From Dictyostelium discoideum (Eukaryota): a stretch of 64,000 nucleotides of DNA. Location: NCBI GenBank assembly GCA_000004695.1, contig CM000151.3, positions 6,432,001 through 6,496,000 of the forward strand. Reading direction: 5' to 3'. The first letter of the stretch is position 1. Each line of letters opens with the position of its first letter. Position numbers and translations under genes: made by a program. Positions 18,079 to 52,403 of the stretch are shown in pieces. Below the pieces are notes generated by a model that did no database searches, was not told where the DNA came from, and saw only the letters and a program-made list of their open reading frames with translations.

Positions 18079-18282
18079 AAAAATAAAATTATATTAAAAT
18101 TGTAAATCATTTTTAAACTTTTTATTTTATTAATTAATAATAATAATAATTAATAATAAAATGATTAAATAAAAAAATAAATAAAATAAAAAATTTTAAA
18201 TTAAAGGAGAAATACAAGATATTTATTATTAAATTGGAAAAAAAAGCCAATTATTATTATTATTATTATTGGTTTTTTTTTT

Positions 18283-20161
18283 TTAAAAAAGATCAGAAAT
18301 TAAATCTTTTGACGATGGTTTACAATTTTCAGGAATATCAAATGAAGCAATGATTTGTTTTGAAACTTTGGTAACTTCAAAACAAAGATCTTGAATTAAG
18401 AATGGGATTGATTGAGCAACATTTGGTGAGATTAAGTGATTTGAAACGAACCAACCTAAATCTTCTTCAATGGAGACAAGAGCGTCCAACATAATTAAAT
18501 GAGCTAATGGTTTAACGTTTTTAAGTTTTAATGTATTGATAGAGTTTTGGAAAACGATTTTAGTCATGTGAGCAAAACCTAATTTGACAGCCCATGGAAT
18601 TGCATTGTTAAAAGCGAAATAAGCAGGTTCTTTAGAGTTGCTAATGATTTGTTTTAATTCGGCCAAACGAATCTCTTCTCTAGTTTCAAATAATTGATTA
18701 ATATTTGAAAAATTGAATAATAACGATTTGGCATCTTCACCATCTAAATAGATACGATTGGTAGTGGTATTTGTTTGTTTTTGTTTTACACCTAATAAAT
18801 ACTTGGCCAATTGTTGCATGAGAACAGTATTATCACCTTCATATGTACAAACGATATCACAATCATTTTTAAATTCAGCTATACGATTTGCTGAACGGTA
18901 ACCTTGACCACCACAAGCTTCACGACAAGTTTGGAGTGCTGCAACACAGAACCAACTGTAAACTGCTTTGATACCTGAGCAATGGGCATGGATTGAAGCT
19001 GGTAATTTCTCTTGACATAATTCATTGGTTAAACGTTGAATGTAAAGATCAAACAAGATGGTTCTTGCCAATGGTGCCATAAGACGACGTTGTTGTGAAC
19101 TGAGAGTAATCAATGGAAGCTCATTATTTGCAGATGGACCAAACTGTTTTCTAATATGTGAGAATTCAATAGCAATAGAGAGGGAGGTTTTGGCAGCACC
19201 TGAACAACCTTTAGTGATTGCCATTCTACCAACAATGAATGGTGCCATTGTTGCAGCGAAATTCTTTATTGGTGTATTGAATTGACTCTTGTAAACACCG
19301 TCTTCGCTAACATCACTATATTTGTTTAAAAGGTTCTCTCTTGGGATACGAACTTGATCGAAACGAATTTGACCATTATCAATACCATTCAAACCTAACT
19401 TATGACCACAATCTTTAATGGTGATACCTTTCATGATTGCACCACTCTTTGGACAACGAAGTGGTACAACCAATGCATGAACACCATAATTTGTACCATC
19501 AATGATTAAGTTTGCGAAAACAGTAGTGTAGGTAGCATGAAGATAAGAACCACCAATCCAAAACTTTTCACTTGTTGGTGTTGGTGAATGAATGATAAAC
19601 TCTTTAGTTTGTTTATCGTAATGTGCAGTAGTTTCAATACCACGAACATTTGAACCATGACCAATCTCTGTCATTGCAAAGCAACCCATTGTCTTGAGGG
19701 TATTAGCATCTTCAATATATTTCTCATGTCTTGAGGTACCTAAAAACATGATTGTACCTCCAAATAATGTATAATGAACACCCAATTTGGTACAAACATT
19801 GTTATTATACAATGAAAACATTTCTACAACACCAGCATATCTGTGAAGGTTATTCTTAATATCAGTCAAATGAATTAATCCACTATTTGCAACAGCAACA
19901 CATTGTTCAAGTACTAATTGTCTATAGGTAGCCATATCCAATCCAATGAAATTCTCTTTGAATTTTGGATGATTTCTAATGAATTCTCTTGCTGCATCCT
20001 TATATTTACTTGCTTCAACTGAATCAATTAATAATTTTAATTCTCCAACATTTATATTTGCATCAATTGAATTAAATAATTCTTTTTCTAATACTTCATT
20101 TTTATTATTTGTTGTTTGACTATTAACATCTAAATGTTTTTTAATCTATATTATATATATG

Positions 20162-20204
<43 letters not shown>

Positions 20205-21171: not shown

Positions 21172-22071
21172 TTTTAATTATTTTTATTTGTTTTTTTTTT
21201 TTTTTTTATATTAAGTTTATTGTTTTTTTTAGTTTTTTAATTAAATGATTAATTTAAAAAATAATCTTCATTTAAATATGAAAAAAAAAAATTTAGGAAA
21301 AGAATTATTTAAACAATTTTATTTTAAAAAAAAAAAAATCATATGAACCAATTATAGATTATTCTAAAATTTCGACAACACGATTGGACAAAATAATAAA
21401 CAAAAAAAAAAGGTATTAAAACATTATTAATTTTTAAAAAAAAAACATAAAATAAAATTTATAAAAACTTTGACCCTTTTATAAGAATTATAGAGATATA
21501 TTTAATGATTTTATTCCATACACAAGTAAGTTGTTTTGTTTTAAAAAAAAAAAAAGAAAACTAAAAAAGTAATGATATTAAAAAAAAAAAAAAAAAATGG
21601 GGTGTGTTAAATCTGATATATATAGTTAAATATTTTTTTACCTTTTTTTTATATTAATTACCACACAATTAAATTAATTAAACTAATAAAATGTGGTATT
21701 GGTTTAATGTCTATTTATAGGATTAAAATGAAAACGAAAAAAACCCAATCATAGCATATACAAATTTATATTATATCTTTATCTTTTTCAATTATTTTTA
21801 TCATTAAAAAAAAAAAAAAAAAAAAAAATTATCCTTCATTTAATTAATTATAATTATATTATTTCATTTTTTTTTTTAATTAAAAATATAAATAATAATT
21901 TTATTAATATTAATAGAATTATTATTATTATTATTATTATTTTAAAATTATAAATTATAAATTAAATAAAAATTAAAATTAAATAATTTTAATTTATTTA
22001 ATTTTTATTTAATTTTATTATTATTATTTTTATTATTATTATTATTATTGTAATTATTATTGGTCATTTTT

Positions 22072-23950
22072 TTAAAAAAGATCAGAAATTAAATCCTTTG
22101 ATGATGGTTTACAATTTTCAGGAATATCAAATGAAGCGATAATTTGTTTTGAAACTTTAGTAACTTCAAAACAAAGATCTTGAATTAAGAATGGGATTGA
22201 TTGAGCAACATTTGGTGAGATTAAATGATTTGAAACGAACCAACCTAAATCTTCTTCAATGGAGACGAGAGCATCCAACATAATTAAATGAGTTAATGGT
22301 TTAACGTTTTTAAGTTTTAATGTATTGATAGAGTTTTGGAAAACGATTTTAGTCATGTGAGCAAAACCTAATTTGACAGCCCATGGAATTGCATTGTTAA
22401 AAGCGAAATAAGCAGATTCTTTAGAGTTGTCAATGATTTGTTTTAATTCGGCCAAACGCATCTCTTCTCTAGTTTCAAATAATTGATTTATATTCGAAAA
22501 ATTGAAAAATAACGATTTGGCATCTTCACCATCTAAATAGATACGATTGGTAGTGGTATTTGTTTGTTTTTGTTTTACACCTAATAAATACTTGGCCAAT
22601 TGTTGCATGAGAACAGTGTTATCACCTTCATATGTGCAAATGATATCACAATCATTTTTAAATTCAGCTATACGATTTGCTGAACGGTAACCCTGGCCAC
22701 CACAAGCTTCACGACAAGTTTGGAGTGCTGCAACACAGAACCAACTGTAAACTGCTTTGATACCAGAGCAGTGAGCATGGATTGAAGCTGGTAATTTCTC
22801 TTGACATAATTCATTGGTTAAACGTTGAATGTAAAGATCAAACAAGATGGTTCTTGCCAATGGTGCCATAAGACGACGTTGTTGAGAACTGAGAGTAATC
22901 AATGGAAGCTCTTTATTTGAAGATGGGCCAAATTGTTTTCTAATATGTGAGAATTCAATAGCAATAGAGAGGGAGGTTTTAGCAGCACCTGAACAACCTT
23001 TAGTGATTGCCATTCTACCAACGATGAATGGTGACATTGTTGCAGCGAAATTCTTTATTGGTGTATTGAATTGGCTCTTGTAAACACCATCTTCGCTAAC
23101 ATCACTATATTTGTTTAAAAGGTTCTCTCTTGGGATACGAACTTGATCGAAACGAATTTGACCATTATCAATACCATTCAAACCTAACTTATGACCACAA
23201 TCTTTAATGGTGATACCTTTCATGATTGCACCACTCTTTGGACAACGAAGTGGTACAATAAATGCATGAATACCATAGTTTGTACCATCAATGATTAAGT
23301 TTGCGAAAACTACAGCATAGGTAGCATGAAGATAAGCGCAACCAATCCAAAACTTTTCACTTGTTGGTGTTGGTGAATGAATGATAAACTCTTTAGTTTG
23401 TTTATCGTAATGTGCAGTAGTTTCAATACCACGAACATTTGAACCATGACCAATCTCTGTCATTGCAAAGCAACCCATTGTCTTGAGGGTATTAGCATCT
23501 TCAATATATTTCTCATGTCTTGAGGTACCTAAAAATATAATTGGACCTCCAAATAATGTATATTGAACACTCAATTTCGTTAAAATATTATTATTATACA
23601 ATGCAAACATTTCTAAAGCGCCTATATATCTGTGAAGGTTATTCTTAATATCAGTAAAATGAATTAATCCACGATTTGCAATTGCAGCACATTGCTCAAG
23701 TACTAATTGTCTATAGGTAGCCATATCCAATCCAATGAAATTCTCTTTGAATTTTGGATGATTTCTAATGAATTCTCTTGTTTCATCCTTATATTTACTT
23801 TCTTCAACTGAATCAATTAATAATTTTAATTCTCCAACATTAATATTTGTATCAATTGAATTAAATAATTCTTTTTCTAAAACTTCATCCTTATTATTTG
23901 TTGTTTGACTATTATTAACTTCTAAATGTTTTTTTATCTATATTATATAA

Positions 23951-23981
<31 letters not shown>

Positions 23982-41008: not shown

Positions 41009-41086
41009 GATATCGTAGCGAAGTGGTAACGTATTTGACTGAATCAAAGCTCCTAGGAGGCGCAGGTTCGAATCCTGCCGATATCG
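41009..41086 (+). tRNA. Class-II tRNA with a long variable arm; anticodon region reads UGA (Ser-like), but the anticodon loop is atypical. Possible pseudogene.
   Basis: The acceptor stem gatatcg/cgatatc pairs over 7 bp. D-arm 'GCG AAGTGGTAA CGT' contains a GG. Canonical T-arm gcagg-TTCGAAT-cctgc. Variable arm ctcc-ta-ggag. Downstream T5 terminator at 41091-41095. The anticodon stem-loop 'tttga ctgaa tcaaa' folds either as a 5-nt loop or as a 7-nt loop with C33. Confidence 0.55.
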
Positions 41087-43936: not shown

Positions 43937-44783
43937 TTTTTTTTTTTTTTTTTTTTTTTTTAATATTGGATTAACAAGATTGATATATGTCCATCTGTGT
44001 TAATACGAGTTTTATTTAATATTTATTTATAGGCTTATCATTTAAGCTGAAGGGTTATTTTAATCATATGAATTGATCAAAAGATATAATATTTGGGAGA
44101 GATGATTCTGGAATACAATAGTAATTAGCTGTTGTTTTTCTTAGCTTGATCGTTGAGGTGAGAAGGATCTTAGGATCTTTGAAATTATTATGGTCTTTTG
44201 CTGATAAGTTTTTCAGATCTTTTGCTTTTTTGATGTATTCTAGAGTGGCCAATTTGTGCCATTTCTTTAGAAGGGAGCTGTATGATAGTGATTCATTTGT
44301 TAAAGGATCTTCACTGTATATTTGATTGCAAATCCAAATCCAAATGTTGTGGAGGATAAGGGCCATTAGGTTTCTATATGCGTATGATCTGGATAGATCA
44401 TAGTCTATTGCTTTATAGTTCCATTCAAAGTATTCTTTGTGGAATCTGTGGTTGGCGTAATCTGCATTCACTTCTTGATCTTTTTTTTGCTGTCGGTGAT
44501 AATTTTGGAGTTATTCTATTAATGAAATTGTTATTTTGCCTAATTCTTGTATGGTGCCAGTTTTTACCTTTGCCTGTGGTAATATAGATGAAATTTTTGA
44601 GTTTATTTATTTTTATGAATTGTTTTGTTTTCTTGCATGAGAAGAACAGGTGACCGTATGGGTCTTTGCTCATATCTTCTTTGCAGAGTGGGCATTGTTT
44701 GTTGTGAAGGTAGTTTATTGGAAGGCATCTGGCATGGAATCTAAACATTGTGTCTCTTGTTTTAGGGTCTTTTATCTTCAGTA
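43937..44783 (-). mobile_element. 5'-truncated copy (847 bp including A-tail) of the adjacent non-LTR retrotransposon's 3' end, in tandem and in the same orientation.
   Basis: 43962-44783 is about 98% identical to 44804-45626 of the full element, which is the C-terminal ORF2 plus 3' UTR. It ends in a 25-nt poly(T) on the plus strand, i.e. a poly(A) tail on the element strand. ORF fragments at 44064..44471 and 44425..44748 are frameshifted relative to the full copy. Confidence 0.8.
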
Positions 44784-44906
44784 TTTTTTTTTTTTTTTTT
44801 TTTAATATTGGATTAACAAGATTGATATATGTCCATCTGTGTTAATACGAGTTTTTATTTAATATTTATTTATAGGCTTATCATTTAAGCTGAAGGGTTA
44901 TTTTAA

Positions 44907-47900
44907 TCATATGAATTGATCAAAAGATATAATATTTGGGAGAGATGATTCTGGAATACAATAGTAATTAGCTGTTGTTTTTCTTAGCTTGATCGTTGAG
45001 GTGAGAAGGATCTTAGGATCTTTGAAGTTATTATGGTCTTTTGCTGATAAGTTTTTCAGATCTTTTGCTTTTTTGATGTATTCTAGAGTGGCCAATTTGT
45101 GCCATTTCTTTAGAAGGGAGCTGTATGATAGTGATTCATTTGTTAAAGGATCTTCGCTGTATATTTGATTGCAAATCCAAATCCAAATGTTGTGGAGGAT
45201 AAGGGCCATTAGGTTTCTATATGCGAATGATCTGGTTAGATCATAGTCTATTGCTTTATAGTTCCATTCAAAGTATTCTTTGTGGAATCTGTGGTTGGCG
45301 TAATCTGCATTCACTTCTTGATCTTTTTTGGCTGTCGGTGATAATTTTGGAGTTATTCTATTAATGAAATTGTTATTTTGCCTAATTCTTGTATGGTGCC
45401 AGTTTTTACCTTTGCCTGTGGTAATATAGATGAAATTTTTGAGTTTATTTATTTTTATGAATTGTTTTGTTTTCTTGCATGAGAAGAACAGGTGACCGTA
45501 TGGGTCTTTGCTCATATCTTCTTTGCAGAGTGGGCATTGTTTGTTGTGAAGGTAGTTTATTGGAAGGCATCTGGCATGGAATCTAAACATTGTGTCTCTT
45601 GTTTTAGGGTCTTTTATCTTCAGTATGTTGTTGAAGAGTTGATTATAGCTGTAGCCTCTTAAGTTTAGAGATGATTGGAATTCCGTTTTAGGGATGGTTG
45701 GATTTTGGTCTTGAATTGTGGTATACCATTCTGCCAGTGAAAGTGGTTGTCCATTTTCGTTTTTTATGGATGTGAGATTATTGTTGAAGATTGCTTTTTT
45801 TATTCTTATTTTGTTCCATTCGTCTAAGTTTTCTTTTAGGTATCTGGATGTGAATTTGTTTTTTTGGATCTGATATTCCCAGCTTTTGTGATGAGATGAG
45901 TTTGTTTGTTTGGTTTCTAGTGCTAGGATGAACTGGTTTATGATCCAAAGTTTCTGCGCCAGTTGTCTCAATTCTATATTCCAAATGTTCCAGCCCCCTA
46001 CTTTTAGTGGGTATCTTGCTCTTTTGGTTCTCATTAAATTAATAACTTGAAATCCACTAGCATTTTTGTTGTTTGGTGCCGATAAAAACCATTCGACTAA
46101 TTTATTGATTTGGTTTAATTCCTCTTCCTTAAAGTTCTCTACATATGAATAGTAGGTTAATTTAGAGAGTGCGAATGCTTTGAGGATGTTGGTTTTGGTT
46201 TTGATTGTTGAGTCAGTGGTTTTCCATAGTACTAAGGATGATCTTATTGTGTTTAATATTTCTGGCATTTTTCTTGTTATCCCTTTGCCTGTGAAGAAGT
46301 ATCCCAAGTATCTTTCTGGATTTGTAGATATTGGAATTCTTTGGTTGGTATTGTCTGGGTTGCCTATAAGAATTGATGAAGATTTGTCGATGTTTAGTTT
46401 TGAGGAAGTGGCTTTGCAAAATGAATTGAAGTGTTGTAGTACTAATTCAAGTTGTTGAGAGTCTGGGACCATTGAAGCCGAGTCGTCTGCAAAGCTTTGG
46501 AATTTCTCTCTGTGGTTGCTGTTGTTTAGAGGAAGGCCAGTAATTCGGTCATCTTGTAAAATTTTTCTAGCTAAAGCCTCTATTACAAGGACGAACAGGG
46601 TGGGTGATAGTGGATCTCCTTGTTTAACTCCTCTTTTGATCTCAAAGGGTATAGTAGTTCTACCATTAATTTCAATTCTTGCTTCAGATTTGGTGAGTAG
46701 ATTCATTATCAGGTTGATTATATTGGTTGGAATGTTGATGTGTTGTAGTGATCTGAGTATTGAACCGTGTGAGATCGAGTCAAAAGCTTTTTCGAAATCA
46801 TATAGTGTAATTATTCCGTTAATTCTTTTATCATTACAATAGTTGATTAATTCGTTCATTGATATGATATTATCTATAATGAATCTGCCTGGTACGAAAC
46901 CTTTTTGATTGTGGTTGATCACTTTCGTTAGTATTGGGATTATTCTATTGTTTATTAGTTTTGAGTGGATTTTATATATACAGTTAGCCAGTGTAATTGG
47001 TCTTCTGTTTTTGATTAGTTCGGGGTCTCCCTTTTTAGGTATCGTGATAATGAGGCCTTCTTTGTAATTTTTGCTAATTAGATGAGGATTTCTTAGAGTG
47101 TCGTTGAATGCTGAGGCCAGTATTGGAGCTAGTTTTTCTTTGTGTGTTATGTAGAATAAGTTTGGAATTCCATCTGGGCCTGGAGATTTGTGTGGGTTCA
47201 ATTGTTTTATTACTTCTAGGATCTCTTGTGATGTGAATTCATTTTCAAGGTTGTCCCATGTTGAGTCCCTGGTCACTGTCCAATTTTCCAACATTTCATA
47301 ATGAGATGGTGGGTCATCTTCTTTGTAGTCATAAAGATTTGAGTAATATTTTACGTATTCTTCTTCGATCAATTCCTGTTTGTTGATTGTTCTACCTTGT
47401 GCATCTTTTACTGCGTTGATGGTGAAATCATTGTGTCTTTTCTTGATTCTCGCGGAGATGTACTTGAGTGAGGTTTCTTCGCAATAGTTGTTCAATTCTT
47501 GTTTAAGTTGTTCTTCTCTTTTTTTAGATTCATTTATTGCTGAAAGGGTTGCGAAGGCTTGGTCTTTAAATTCTGTCTCTAGTAGGGAGATTAGATTTTT
47601 GATGTTTGCCTTATTGTTGTAGTCATTTTGTTTTTGAAATTCTGTGTATAGTTGTTTTATTTTGTTTAGTAAGCTGTTGAGTTGAGAGAAGGAAATAGAG
47701 TTATGGTTGGATGACAGCTCCCTTGAATAATCGTTAAGTAGGAAGTCTATTTTCTTAAGCATTATGCTTGAGAGGATTGAGGATTTTTTTAATCTCCATC
47801 TGCGCTTGTTCATCTGTATGTTGGGTAGAGTGAAGGTGGTTGATAGGAAGTTGTGATCTGATAGAGGTATGTCATTAATTTTTGGGGGGATTAGGTTCCT

Positions 47901-48611
47901 TAAGTATAATTGGCTGTAGTTGATTATGCTATTGTTAAGGTATATTCTGTCTAGTCTCCTTTCCAAGATTCTTGTGAGGTTATTGTTTGTGTTGTGTATC
48001 GTTCTTGAGAAGGTGGGTCTTTTATTTAGTTGGTCCATATCCATTAGGTTATTTGAAATTCTGATGGCTTCGATTACTGTGGCCATCTCATCTGGGGATT
48101 GTGTTGTCAAGTTGCCTTGGTCATCATTTGATGTGTGATTGTCATTGAAGTCTAAACAATTGAAGTCGCCTGCTATGATGTCGATGTTTTTTTTAGGGTT
48201 AGACGTTAGGTTGTGGTATTGGTTGTTGAAGTGTTTGTTTAGTGTTGAAGCTAGTGTTTTTCTTTTATCAGGTTGGGCCGGGGCGTATATGGCCAAGATT
48301 CTCGTTGTGGTATCTTTTATTAGAATGTCTGATATTATTAGTCTACCTTCTATTATGAATATTGGTGAGAGTTTTATGTTTTGGTTGTTGTGGTTTAGTA
48401 TTCCTATTCCGTTGCCTCTGTTGGTTGCGCTAATGATGGAGCCAGGAAATAGCTGGTGTGCTTGTGTTGCGTCGGCGTTGAGTTCATTGACTATGGTTAG
48501 TGCCAATGAGTTTGGGGGGGATTGGGATTTGATAAAGTCTGTTTTGTTTTTGAAGGAGGTGTCAGTGCCCCAACCTCTGACATTCCATTGGTTGATTTTG
48601 ATTACTACCAT
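44907..48611 (-). CDS. Retrotransposon ORF2: apurinic-like endonuclease + reverse transcriptase + C-terminal CCHC zinc knuckle (1234 aa).
   Basis: Real ATG at 48611. The N-terminal EEP fold 'LAIYAPAQ...GDFNCLDF...SDHNF'. RT motifs 'PGPDGIPN', 'FEKAFDSISH', 'QGDPLSPTLF', 'SFADDSA' (YXDD box). C-terminal 'CPLCKEDMSKDPYGHLFFSCK'. Confidence 0.85.
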   Translation of the reverse strand: MVVIKINQWNVRGWGTDTSFKNKTDFIKSQSPPNSLALTIVNELNADATQAHQLFPGSIISATNRGNGIGILNHNNQNIKLSPIFIIEGRLIISDILIKDTTTRILAIYAPAQPDKRKTLASTLNKHFNNQYHNLTSNPKKNIDIIAGDFNCLDFNDNHTSNDDQGNLTTQSPDEMATVIEAIRISNNLMDMDQLNKRPTFSRTIHNTNNNLTRILERRLDRIYLNNSIINYSQLYLRNLIPPKINDIPLSDHNFLSTTFTLPNIQMNKRRWRLKKSSILSSIMLKKIDFLLNDYSRELSSNHNSISFSQLNSLLNKIKQLYTEFQKQNDYNNKANIKNLISLLETEFKDQAFATLSAINESKKREEQLKQELNNYCEETSLKYISARIKKRHNDFTINAVKDAQGRTINKQELIEEEYVKYYSNLYDYKEDDPPSHYEMLENWTVTRDSTWDNLENEFTSQEILEVIKQLNPHKSPGPDGIPNLFYITHKEKLAPILASAFNDTLRNPHLISKNYKEGLIITIPKKGDPELIKNRRPITLANCIYKIHSKLINNRIIPILTKVINHNQKGFVPGRFIIDNIISMNELINYCNDKRINGIITLYDFEKAFDSISHGSILRSLQHINIPTNIINLIMNLLTKSEARIEINGRTTIPFEIKRGVKQGDPLSPTLFVLVIEALARKILQDDRITGLPLNNSNHREKFQSFADDSASMVPDSQQLELVLQHFNSFCKATSSKLNIDKSSSILIGNPDNTNQRIPISTNPERYLGYFFTGKGITRKMPEILNTIRSSLVLWKTTDSTIKTKTNILKAFALSKLTYYSYVENFKEEELNQINKLVEWFLSAPNNKNASGFQVINLMRTKRARYPLKVGGWNIWNIELRQLAQKLWIINQFILALETKQTNSSHHKSWEYQIQKNKFTSRYLKENLDEWNKIRIKKAIFNNNLTSIKNENGQPLSLAEWYTTIQDQNPTIPKTEFQSSLNLRGYSYNQLFNNILKIKDPKTRDTMFRFHARCLPINYLHNKQCPLCKEDMSKDPYGHLFFSCKKTKQFIKINKLKNFIYITTGKGKNWHHTRIRQNNNFINRITPKLSPTAKKDQEVNADYANHRFHKEYFEWNYKAIDYDLTRSFAYRNLMALILHNIWIWICNQIYSEDPLTNESLSYSSLLKKWHKLATLEYIKKAKDLKNLSAKDHNNFKDPKILLTSTIKLRKTTANYYCIPESSLPNIISFDQFI

Positions 48612-49864
48612 TATGAGATGATATCGATCTCCTCTTGGGAGTCGTATAGCTGCGGTTTGGATGGTGAAGGGTAGATACTCTCTATGAAGCTCTCAATGAT
48701 TCCTTTCCTTTCTTTTTTGACAGGTGTCTTAGGGGTGGATGGGATGTAAGGGTTGCTTCTGTTTATTGTTGGTGAGAGTTGGGTGACCTCGTTGTTTGAG
48801 TGGATTTCCTCGTTCTTGCGTTTATGTGATGGAGGGATGTTTGGTGTCTTCTCTCTGTTTTCCGAGGATGAATGGATGTTAGTGCTCGTTTTGTTGGCAT
48901 TGTCTTTTTGGATGGCGTTGGATGTTGTGGTAGTGGTTGTGGTGGGTTTGACAGATTGAGATTCTGCTTGGTTTTTGGGGGGAAGAGGTTGAGAGGACTT
49001 TTTTGATTGGGCTTTTTTCTCTTGGGTTGATTGTTTATCAGACTGATTGTTTGCTGGGTCATTTGTTTGTTGTTGTGGTTTTGGTTGAGAGGATTTGATT
49101 GCTATCCTGTTTTGGGTGTTGGGAGGATCATCTGTCATCTCATCTTCTAATGGTTCTTCCGTGTTGTTTAACTCTACTTTCTTATTTTTCTTTTGTGAGG
49201 AGTAGGTTTTGGTGGCCGTTCTGATGGTAAAGTTGGCGATTTCTGTATTGTGTTGGCCAGATTTCATTTGATCGCCTATTTTGCATTCTATTAGACCGAA
49301 TACTAGGAGGTGGTCGGTGGAGTATATAGTATGGTATATTGCATAGGGTATTTCTTCTGCAAAGGCAGTTTTGATGAGGGCGTCCACTATTCCTGCCTTT
49401 TCTCTTGGAATTCTTACTCTTCCTGTGAGGACGTGGTAGTCTCTACTGGAGGTGATGAAGGTTCCCAATTTGCTTCTATCTCTAATGATATTTAGGAGAG
49501 ATTGTTCGTTTTTAATCATCAGGTGTATCATTTTTCTAGTTCCTTTGCCTATGTATATCTTGTCGATTGGGATATCGTAGTTTGAGAGTGTTTTTCTCAT
49601 TTCTTCTAACCCCATGAGATCCATTTTGGGGAATTCGAGTGTAATTGGGTAGAATCCGTTGTTTTTCTCGTAGGTTGAGAGCGCAGTCATGTTCAATATG
49701 GTCTCGCAGTATTTGGAGATGTCTTTGAGGCCTATTGATAATTTGGGATAGGTCTCCTTTATCTCTGCTGTTTTTGTGGAGAATTCCTTAATGAAGTTCT
49801 CTGATGCCTCGTCCATATGGGTGGAGGGGTTGGCCATTTTAGCCGCGTCTGCGTAGGAATTCAT
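48611..49864 (-). CDS. Retrotransposon ORF1 (417 aa, basic Gag-like; Pro/Thr/Gln-rich C-terminal half).
   Basis: Real ATG at 49864. The stop overlaps the ORF2 start. Confidence 0.7.
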   Translation of the reverse strand: MNSYADAAKMANPSTHMDEASENFIKEFSTKTAEIKETYPKLSIGLKDISKYCETILNMTALSTYEKNNGFYPITLEFPKMDLMGLEEMRKTLSNYDIPIDKIYIGKGTRKMIHLMIKNEQSLLNIIRDRSKLGTFITSSRDYHVLTGRVRIPREKAGIVDALIKTAFAEEIPYAIYHTIYSTDHLLVFGLIECKIGDQMKSGQHNTEIANFTIRTATKTYSSQKKNKKVELNNTEEPLEDEMTDDPPNTQNRIAIKSSQPKPQQQTNDPANNQSDKQSTQEKKAQSKKSSQPLPPKNQAESQSVKPTTTTTTTSNAIQKDNANKTSTNIHSSSENREKTPNIPPSHKRKNEEIHSNNEVTQLSPTINRSNPYIPSTPKTPVKKERKGIIESFIESIYPSPSKPQLYDSQEEIDIIS

Positions 49865-50134
49865 CTCGATGGGATTCCTTTGAATCGGCGATTTGGTAAG
49901 TTATATCTGTAGATCGTGGTGGATTGGTGATTTTTTTTGAAAGATTGGTTAAAATTGACCGAGATTAAGGATAGAAAAGGATGAATTACTTTTCACGTGT
50001 ATCTTGTATCCTCTTGATCGCGGTACGGTTTTTTTCGTATCTTGTATCCTCTTGATCGCGGTACGGTTTTTTCAAACATAACTTTTGTTTAATTAAAAGG
50101 TTGAGCCCAATAAGAGAATCGAACCAGGGACATT

Positions 50135-50228: not shown

Positions 50229-50420
50229 GGTACTTTACCTTTTGAAAATAATTGAGAATTACGGTTGATATTGACCACTGTGATACTTTACCTTTTGAAA
50301 CCATGAATTACGGTGAGTCTTACCCATTTGACAACTCTGATACTCTACCTTTTGAAAACCATTGGGAATTACGGTTGATTTTGACCACTTTGGTACTTTA
50401 CCTTTTGAAAACCTTGGCTA
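50190..50420. repeat. Tandem array of about 4 units, roughly 60 bp each. Each unit is a copy of the tRNA-Leu 5' half (about 35 nt) plus about 25 nt of upstream flank (ttttgaaaa..attacgg).
   Basis: 'gagtcttacccatttgaccactctggtactttacc ttttgaaaataattgagaattacgg' is followed by 'ttgatattgaccactgtgatactttacc ttttgaaaccatgaattacgg', then 'tgagtcttacccatttgacaactctgatactctacc ttttgaaaaccattgggaattacgg', then 'ttgattttgaccactttggtactttacc ttttgaaaacc'. Confidence 0.7.
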
Positions 50421-51784: not shown

Positions 51785-51822
<38 letters not shown>

Positions 51823-51968
51823 TTAACACATTTATAAAATTAAAATAATTTATTGTAGGGTAATTTTTTTTTTTTTTTTAAAATTAAATTTAATAAAGGG
51901 AAAAAAATAAAAACTAATTAGATTTTTTTTTTTTCCATTAATATTTTTTAAATAAATGGAATTGTTAA

Positions 51969-52009
<41 letters not shown>

Positions 52010-52403
52010 TTTTATGTTTATTAGTTTTTAAAGATTATAAAAAATTTTTTTTAAGGGAAGTTTATTATAAAAAATAAAGTGGGAAAATTTCTTTATATTG
52101 GCATATTGTGTATAGATTATATTCATAACACAAATATTAAATCTGTATTTGAAGATTGTTACAATAATAATTCAATAGTTTCCATCTCATTTTTTAGAAA
52201 TAATAAAAAATAAAATAAAATATACAAATAATAAAAAAAAAAAAAAATTAAAAAAACCAAAAAAATAAAAAAATATTTAAACTAAAAAAAAAAATTAAAA
52301 ATTAAAAAAAGCTTATCCAATATAAAAAATTTAAATATTATTATATTTTTTTTTTATTTTTTTTATAAACAATTTAAAAAAAAAAAAAAAAAAAAAAAAA
52401 CAA

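Follow-up and report, generated by a model that had tools for sequence, protein, structure and literature searches.

A 64-kb stretch of Dictyostelium discoideum chromosome 2 (hereafter the window; contig CM000151.3 of GCA_000004695.1, positions 6,432,001 to 6,496,000) contains two copies of one retrotransposon, a full-length element (F) and a 5'-truncated copy (T), fused head to tail within a single 11-bp target-site duplication (TSD). With good confidence we assign the region to a TRE3 array, i.e., to non-long terminal repeat (non-LTR) retrotransposons of the L1 clade, most likely of the TRE3-A subfamily, and preferably trace F and T back to one integration during which the reverse transcriptase (RT) jumped between templates. 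Element, repeat and TSD are not products of chance, because the 840-nt repeat formed by F and T has an E-value of 0 and the whole window has no more than two occurrences of the 11-mer AAACAAAAGTT, one at each outer end of the composite. Element type and tandem occurrence are already known, and the locus is part of a sequenced chromosome; an ORF in the neighbourhood of the array is exactly DDB_G0276059 of AX4 chromosome 2.

All parts of the array lie on the minus strand, and sense runs from high to low coordinates. The integration target is a tRNA-Leu(CAA) gene predicted by ARAGORN (50239 to 50159), with the T5 terminator of RNA polymerase III (pol III) at 50154-50150. One TSD copy occupies 50090-50080, and F extends from 50079 to 44804 in the orientation of the tRNA gene. 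Counted from the end of the tRNA gene, the TSD is 68 nt and the first base of F 79 nt away. The element measures 5,276 bp, or 5,232 bp when only one of its two 5' units, described below, is counted. Its poly(A), an A20 run (44803 to 44784), is followed by T (44783 to 43962), an equivalent of F's final 822 nt. The poly(A) that ends T (43961-43940) belongs to an A run of 25 nt (43961 to 43937) whose last three A overlap the second TSD copy (43939-43929); T and its tail together amount to 847 bp. A first-pass annotation, made from the sequence alone, had proposed a complete element of about 5.3 kb with a poly(A) tail, a head-to-tail 5'-truncated partner of 847 bp with its own poly(A), and a tRNA-Leu gene beside the 5' end of the element. 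Its features, sizes and coordinates were right, the size of the partner exactly so, and a TSD indeed lies close to both ends, 43937 and 50090, of the region it had delimited. It went astray in the strand, in the identity of the two copies and in the exact 5' boundary: position 50090 begins the TSD copy and not the element, and the tRNA gene, though close by, is somewhat farther off than the 60 bp it had estimated.

At the inner joint, the A20 of F runs straight into TACTGAAG of T, and neither target DNA nor a TSD is present between the two. F and T are one composite within a single 11-bp TSD. Over about 840 nt, T deviates from F by five mismatches and two indels, which corresponds to roughly 99% identity rather than the 98% first noted. 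One of the indels causes a frameshift, and two to three substitutions are private to T.

Within the window, F contains two uninterrupted open reading frames (ORFs), encoding 417 aa (ORF1, 49864 to 48611) and 1,234 aa (ORF2, 48611 to 44907). The stop codon of ORF1 and the ATG of ORF2 share one base in TAATG (48613 to 48609), and ORF2 is accordingly read in the -1 frame. About 220 aa at the N-terminus of ORF1 form a conserved domain, and the tail is of low complexity. ORF1 matched no Pfam family and has no zinc knuckle, and its homologue searches yielded the same family only. A single-sequence AlphaFold2 model of ORF1 was poor (predicted local distance difference test score, pLDDT, of 40). ORF2 is far better defined. 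Its RVT_1 domain was found in Pfam (E=1e-33), and its top match in the PDB was human LINE-1 ORF2p (E=3e-50), to which it aligned collinearly (residues 312-820 versus 311-823), delimiting an L1-type RT at about aa 312-820. The apurinic/apyrimidinic endonuclease (APE) domain at about aa 4-264 fell below the Pfam threshold (E=0.005) and remained unseen by phmmer against the PDB, but a profile-profile comparison with the APE domains of homologues returned it with 97% probability (E=1e-10), and the catalytic N, E, GDFN and SDH motifs are kept. Toward the C-terminus, aa 1026-1045 form a CX2CX10HX4C zinc motif, CPLCKEDMSKDPYGHLFFSC. The order APE, RT and CCHC behind a TAATG overlap had thus been read correctly from the outset.

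Previous work described TREs as non-LTR elements with two ORFs, of which ORF2 contains APE, RT and zinc finger in this order, and with an oligo(A) end (PMC5006619). F has this architecture throughout. TRE3 elements reside 40-150 bp downstream of tRNA genes and share their orientation, TRE5 elements about 50 bp upstream in opposite orientation (PMC5911963); F lies 68-79 nt downstream of tRNA-Leu(CAA) on the same strand, which is the TRE3 and not the TRE5 arrangement. TRE3 has been placed in the L1 group (PMC5911963, Table 1), and F shows the features of this clade: APE, an L1-like RT, a C-terminal Cys/His motif, TSD and poly(A), and no RNase H. The family is multicopy and lives in a dictyostelid host, as is expected for TRE3. 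Over its annotated part, ORF2 is 100% identical to D. discoideum "hypothetical proteins", and its cluster at 90% identity counts 79 members, drawn from assemblies of D. discoideum and of D. citrinum; dictyBase identifiers of these members were absent from the papers and supplements searched.

For comparison, eleven loci (L001-L011) were retrieved via their proteins. They include ten further insertion sites of the family of F, all 57-134 bp downstream of tRNA genes and all co-oriented with them. Two full copies, among them a chromosome-6 copy (L001b), follow an intron-bearing tRNA gene in L001, and a truncated copy stands 107 bp behind tRNA-Ile in L003. Four D. citrinum copies, 95% identical, lie behind tRNA-Ser, -Leu, -Arg and -Lys (L006-L009), one copy behind tRNA-Asp (L010), and an array with two of the ten sites behind tRNA-Arg (L011). 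Identity between F and other copies was 98.7-99.5% by BLAST. The layout of 417 aa, TAATG and 1,234 aa is kept in six of eight full copies, including the four from D. citrinum. Architecture, position, orientation and these ten sites together bear out the initial view of a TRE-type non-LTR element associated with a tRNA gene.

The subfamily is probably TRE3-A, formerly Tdd-3, a call that we derive from canonical length, cluster abundance and the -1 frame of ORF2. Table 1 of PMC5006619 gives consensus lengths of 5,229 bp (TRE3-A), 5,279 bp (TRE3-B) and 4,734 bp (TRE3-C). In one publication, DDB_G0291686 is listed as the ORF2 of TRE3-B. Canonical one-unit copies of the family of F measure 5,232-5,24x bp, and eight of nine copies are single-unit with about 5.23 kb. 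TRE3-A is the most abundant TRE3 (PMC5006619, PMC5911963), and the protein cluster of F is by far the most populous TRE3-like cluster that we found. The ORF2 of TRE3-A was reported in the -1 frame (PMC5911963), as it is in F, a trait that is not known to be confined to TRE3-A.

TRE3 targeting is reported to be guided by an internal or an external B box (PMC5911963). At the present locus, the internal B box of tRNA-Leu(CAA), GAGTTCGAATCTC, lies at 50181-50169, and an external B-box-like motif, GGTTCGATTCTC, can be read off the sequence at 50125 to 50114, i.e., 33 nt 3' of the tRNA gene and 23 nt before the TSD. Directly upstream of the same gene, 50240-50417 on the minus strand is made up of three decayed tandem copies with a period of about 53-57 nt. 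They consist of TTTTCAAAA and the first 22-36 nt of the tRNA-Leu gene, including the A-box region, can also be read as two copies of 110 nt at 91% identity, and are identical in a second assembly, GCA_054883475.1.

The 5' terminus of F is doubled (50072-49999), as found by repeat finding and TRF. Unit 1 (50072 to 50037) is followed by GA and unit 2 (50034 to 49999), and each unit reads AAAAAACCGTACCGCGATCAAGAGGATACAAGATAC; the direct repeat is hence a perfect one of 36 nt with a 38-nt period (49999-50034 and 50037-50072). In front of it stand seven extra nucleotides, ATGTTTG (50079-50073), which match neither target nor element when the 5' ends of eight other copies are compared. Because these eight copies, including those of L006-L010 and L001, carry one unit, and a doubled one was seen only in the orthologous locus (L002), the doubling is a peculiarity of the present insertion and not a trait of the family 5' untranslated region (UTR). 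The first-pass annotation had recorded it as a 37-bp repeat of the 5' UTR. A direct repeat does exist, but it is 36 nt long and represents the element's own terminus copied twice.

How far the window renders a single real insertion can be judged from the orthologous locus in GCA_054883475.1, which we rebuilt by merging L002 and L004. The unique flanks differ from the window nearly only in homopolymer lengths, with two substitutions in 13.9 kb on the left side, and TSD, ATGTTTG and doubled 5' unit are shared. The order of this locus, however, is tRNA, TSD, unit A, A31, unit B, poly(A), T and TSD. In unit A (L002 4640-7700), the 5' 2.64 kb are joined in frame to the last 317 nt, which leaves ORF1 intact and an ORF2 of 448 aa; we take it to resemble the non-autonomous deletion derivative TRE5-A.2. 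A deletion derivative similar to unit A is also found at L001 1-416. Unit B is about 27 nt short at its 5' end, and a 76-nt deletion breaks its ORF2. An intact ORF2 is absent from all three units.

F equals unit A, including private alleles, over 50080-48997, and it shares with unit B the private allele at 45156 and the adjacency to T. Its stretch 48898-48024, however, has the haplotype of L001b, the chromosome-6 copy, and none of the seven private alleles of unit A. F would thus be a mosaic, with a chance slightly above even that it is no single real insertion and arose either by collapse or chimerism of the assembly or by unequal recombination between tandem units together with gene conversion. 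In favor of such an origin, forty-odd substitutions within the repeats stand against almost none outside, which is hard to fit to the divergence of orthologues. A simple crossover between units A and B was insufficient to derive F, as its middle represents a third haplotype. On the other hand, a recombination deletion between 99%-identical tandem units is biologically easy, ectopic gene conversion between TREs is possible, and GCA_054883475.1 may itself be in error, for example in the 76-nt deletion of unit B. Collapse of the window's assembly seems more likely than recombination between A and B plus gene conversion, because the middle of F resembles generic family sequence. The earlier expectation that the full copy has intact ORFs and may be active must hence be qualified: its frames are open in the window, but activity is doubtful for a mosaic F whose orthologous locus offers no intact ORF2.

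Other tandems of the family show two kinds of junction. In L001, each copy has its own TSD of 10-11 bp (TAAGAGATCAA and TAATGCATAA), and 22 bp of target DNA lie between the copies, which is the trace of ordinary sequential insertion. Direct poly(A)-to-5' joints like that of F and T were found four times elsewhere in the family, two of them in the orthologous three-unit array and one each in L009 and L011. In L009, a short element of about 220 nt is fused head to tail to a full TRE3 copy within a single TSD, CAAATGAT. This short element (L009 5814-6037, D. citrinum, GCA_054859145.1) begins with the TRE3 5' terminus AAAAAACCGTACC, continues with an unrelated body that is tRNA-like and contains a B box, and ends like TRE3 in ..AATCTAATATT-A24; it may be a non-autonomous partner resembling a short interspersed nuclear element (SINE) or a chimeric retrocopy. 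In D. discoideum L011 (8590-13420), three 5'-truncated TRE3 units stand downstream of tRNA-Arg(ACG). Unit 1 has its own TSD (GGTACCC), two units are directly joined, and the 5' junction contains a 20-nt inverted TRE3 piece reminiscent of twin priming.

For the origin of the composite we favor a single integration with template jumping of the RT, to which we give a chance of about one half or slightly less. By analogy with the family and the L1 clade, TRE3 would be transcribed from its own 5' end, and ORF1 and ORF2 would be translated from one RNA, ORF2 either via frameshifting, as given in the literature for TRE3-A (PMC5911963), or via termination-reinitiation at UAAUG. The resulting particle would be tethered, at the B box or its external counterpart, to the pol III transcription complex on the tRNA gene. 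A few tens of bp downstream, APE would then nick the bottom strand, at this locus within 5'-TTTGTTT/AATTAA, and the RT would copy the RNA from its poly(A) by target-primed reverse transcription (TPRT), leaving a TSD of about 10-11 bp. In the present case, the RT may have started by copying the 3'-terminal 822 nt of one RNA and then jumped to the poly(A) of another. Upon reaching the 5' end of this second RNA, it would have jumped again and re-copied the terminal 36 nt. Extra G and untemplated nucleotides are classic marks of an RT jumping at an RNA 5' end, as known from L1 and R2, and the extra G and the re-copied 36-nt terminus might be traces left by the RT as it ran off a capped 5' end and jumped. 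Template jumping would account at once for a distal unit that is truncated, a proximal one that is full, the extra G and the terminus copied twice. More tentatively, serial jumps in single events may have produced F and T, the three-unit version and the direct-joint arrays of L009 and L011 in the same way.

Several points weigh against the overall picture. With its two 5' units, F measures 5,276 bp and comes close to the TRE3-B consensus of 5,279 bp, and the subfamily call is based on length and abundance. F and T differ at about six sites, two of which segregate among other copies, so the two would not be copies of one identical RNA unless they decayed later. As for tethering, experimental work has dealt with TRE5-A only (PMC5006619). 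Moreover, a single TSD and direct joints would equally result from insertion into a resident poly(A), where a TSD consisting of A only is invisible.

In such a nested scenario, F would have come first and T would have entered the poly(A) of F later. We consider this unlikely, although it would account both for the direct joint and for the presence of only one visible TSD. In addition, the 3' end of the element offers TTTT/AATATT on the bottom strand, an ideal nick site that fits the preference of L1-type endonucleases, and distal units are typically 5'-truncated, as are T and unit 3 of L011. Yet the insertion would have occurred 5.3 kb from the tRNA gene, or 8 kb in the three-unit version, in a family that otherwise integrates at about 40-150 bp (PMC5911963), and A/T runs are abundant throughout the genome without being targeted. 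T is not visibly younger either, having two to three private changes in 822 nt compared to one in the matching part of F and B. Finally, tail insertion leaves the re-copied 5' terminus and the extra nucleotides unexplained. Template jumping is tentatively favored over tail insertion because the latter would sit 5-8 kb from the tRNA gene and because private divergence is similar in all units of the array (0.2-0.4%).

That two ordinary TRE3 integrations hit one tRNA gene independently and in succession is improbable. Sequential hits giving tandems do occur with TREs and are the explanation usually offered for TRE tandems (PMC5006619, supplement, note to Table S2), and within the same family we observed them in L001 and for unit 1 of L011. 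However, a second TPRT at the canonical distance would leave a TSD of its own and place AAACAAAAGTT behind the poly(A) of F, in front of T, where the joint is without it, and the sequential model would need a blunt second event at the exact TSD/T junction. Of the two origins suggested at first, template switching is hence the one retained, whereas re-insertion at the same target is disfavored because a single TSD surrounds the composite and none lies inside. Least probable is that the composite was copied whole from a read-through transcript of an F-poly(A)-T array elsewhere, in analogy to 3' transduction: L1-type elements commonly have weak polyadenylation signals and show read-through, and one TSD around two units would be explained, but the origin of the direct joint would merely be shifted to a donor locus, no second F/T joint was seen in the window or any locus fetched, a 9-kb three-unit transcript is unlikely, and the duplicated 5' terminus would be left unaccounted for.

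Descriptions of TRE3 elements downstream of tRNA genes in D. discoideum, tandems included, go back to the 1980s-1990s, and as a genome feature the array as such is of little consequence. A mildly newer angle is the anatomy of its junctions: units joined directly from poly(A) to 5' end within one TSD, and a 5' terminus that was copied again and bears an extra G. This anatomy provides natural evidence on how TRE3 tandems form, pointing to template jumping or tail insertion over re-targeting, and suggests that some of them are one-step concatemers. If true, many TRE3 tandems would be concatemers from a single integration, contrary to the assumption of repeated hits in the literature. Furthermore, the disagreement between near-isogenic assemblies calls for caution whenever 99%-identical repeats from one assembly are described as intact and possibly active.

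Some further observations concern the surroundings of the array and the comparison loci. A Ras-like gene occupies about 50.75-51.9 kb of the window. The tRNA-Ser(UGA) gene on the plus strand of the window (41009-41086) has no adjoining copy of the TRE3 family of F, other element families not having been searched. At 18250-20190 and 22041-23981, the minus strand contains a tandem gene duplicate with 552-aa ORFs and 95% nucleotide identity. Dense A<->T differences to GCA_054883475.1 accumulate in AT-rich intergenic DNA at 51822-52100, with flanks that are otherwise identical; the cluster may represent a small rearrangement or an assembly difference. In L011 (1-8000), two elements in tandem, with 444-aa and 1,047-aa ORFs, lie upstream of tRNA-Arg(ACG) in opposite orientation and are presumably TRE5. 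Two other TRE3-like lineages were also encountered. The element in L005 (7500-14100), apparently about 6.6 kb long, is degenerate and has no adjoining tRNA gene; its ORF2 is 58% and its ORF1 N-terminal domain 40% identical to those of F. The one in L010 (15400-19180) stands downstream of tRNA-Ala and has an ORF2 with 40% identity and an unrelated ORF1.

Among known systems, Skipper-2 (DGLT-P) of dictyostelids has convergently come to integrate in the same window downstream of tRNA genes (PMC5006619), but it is an LTR and integrase element, whereas the present region is without long terminal repeats (LTRs), integrase or RNase H. TRE5-A, formerly DRE, belongs to the same superfamily and has the same order of ORF2 domains and the targeting of tRNA genes through the pol III complex, and a retrotransposition assay with a genetic tag exists for it (PMC3159450); TRE5 elements deviate from F in their position about 50 bp upstream, their opposite orientation and their modular A/B/C UTRs (PMC5911963).

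Human LINE-1 shares APE and TPRT with F, along with the Cys/His motif toward the C-terminus, poly(A) tails and copies that are frequently 5'-truncated. In contrast to F, it does not target tRNA genes, and its ORFs are separated by a spacer where those of F overlap by one base. The ORF1 of F, moreover, has no detectable similarity to L1 ORF1p. Template jumping by non-LTR RTs is exemplified by R2, by chimeric L1 retrocopies (U6/L1) and by twin priming. The head-to-tail poly(A)-to-5' joints, the extra G, the untemplated nucleotides and the inverted piece in L011 are all alike to the products of these systems, in keeping with the behaviour proposed here.

TRE3-B and TRE3-C have the same architecture and target preference as F, and the TRE3-like lineages of L005 and L010 are clearly distinct from its family. 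Likeness is closest to TRE3-A, with which F has in common the host, two ORFs, a -1 frame ORF2 with APE, RT and zinc finger, the oligo(A), the abundance and the occurrence in tandems, the canonical family length being 5,232 bp and the TRE3-A consensus 5,229 bp. No difference from TRE3-A was seen at the family level; what sets the present copy apart is its doubled 5' terminus, the seven extra nucleotides in front of it and the fusion with T within one TSD.

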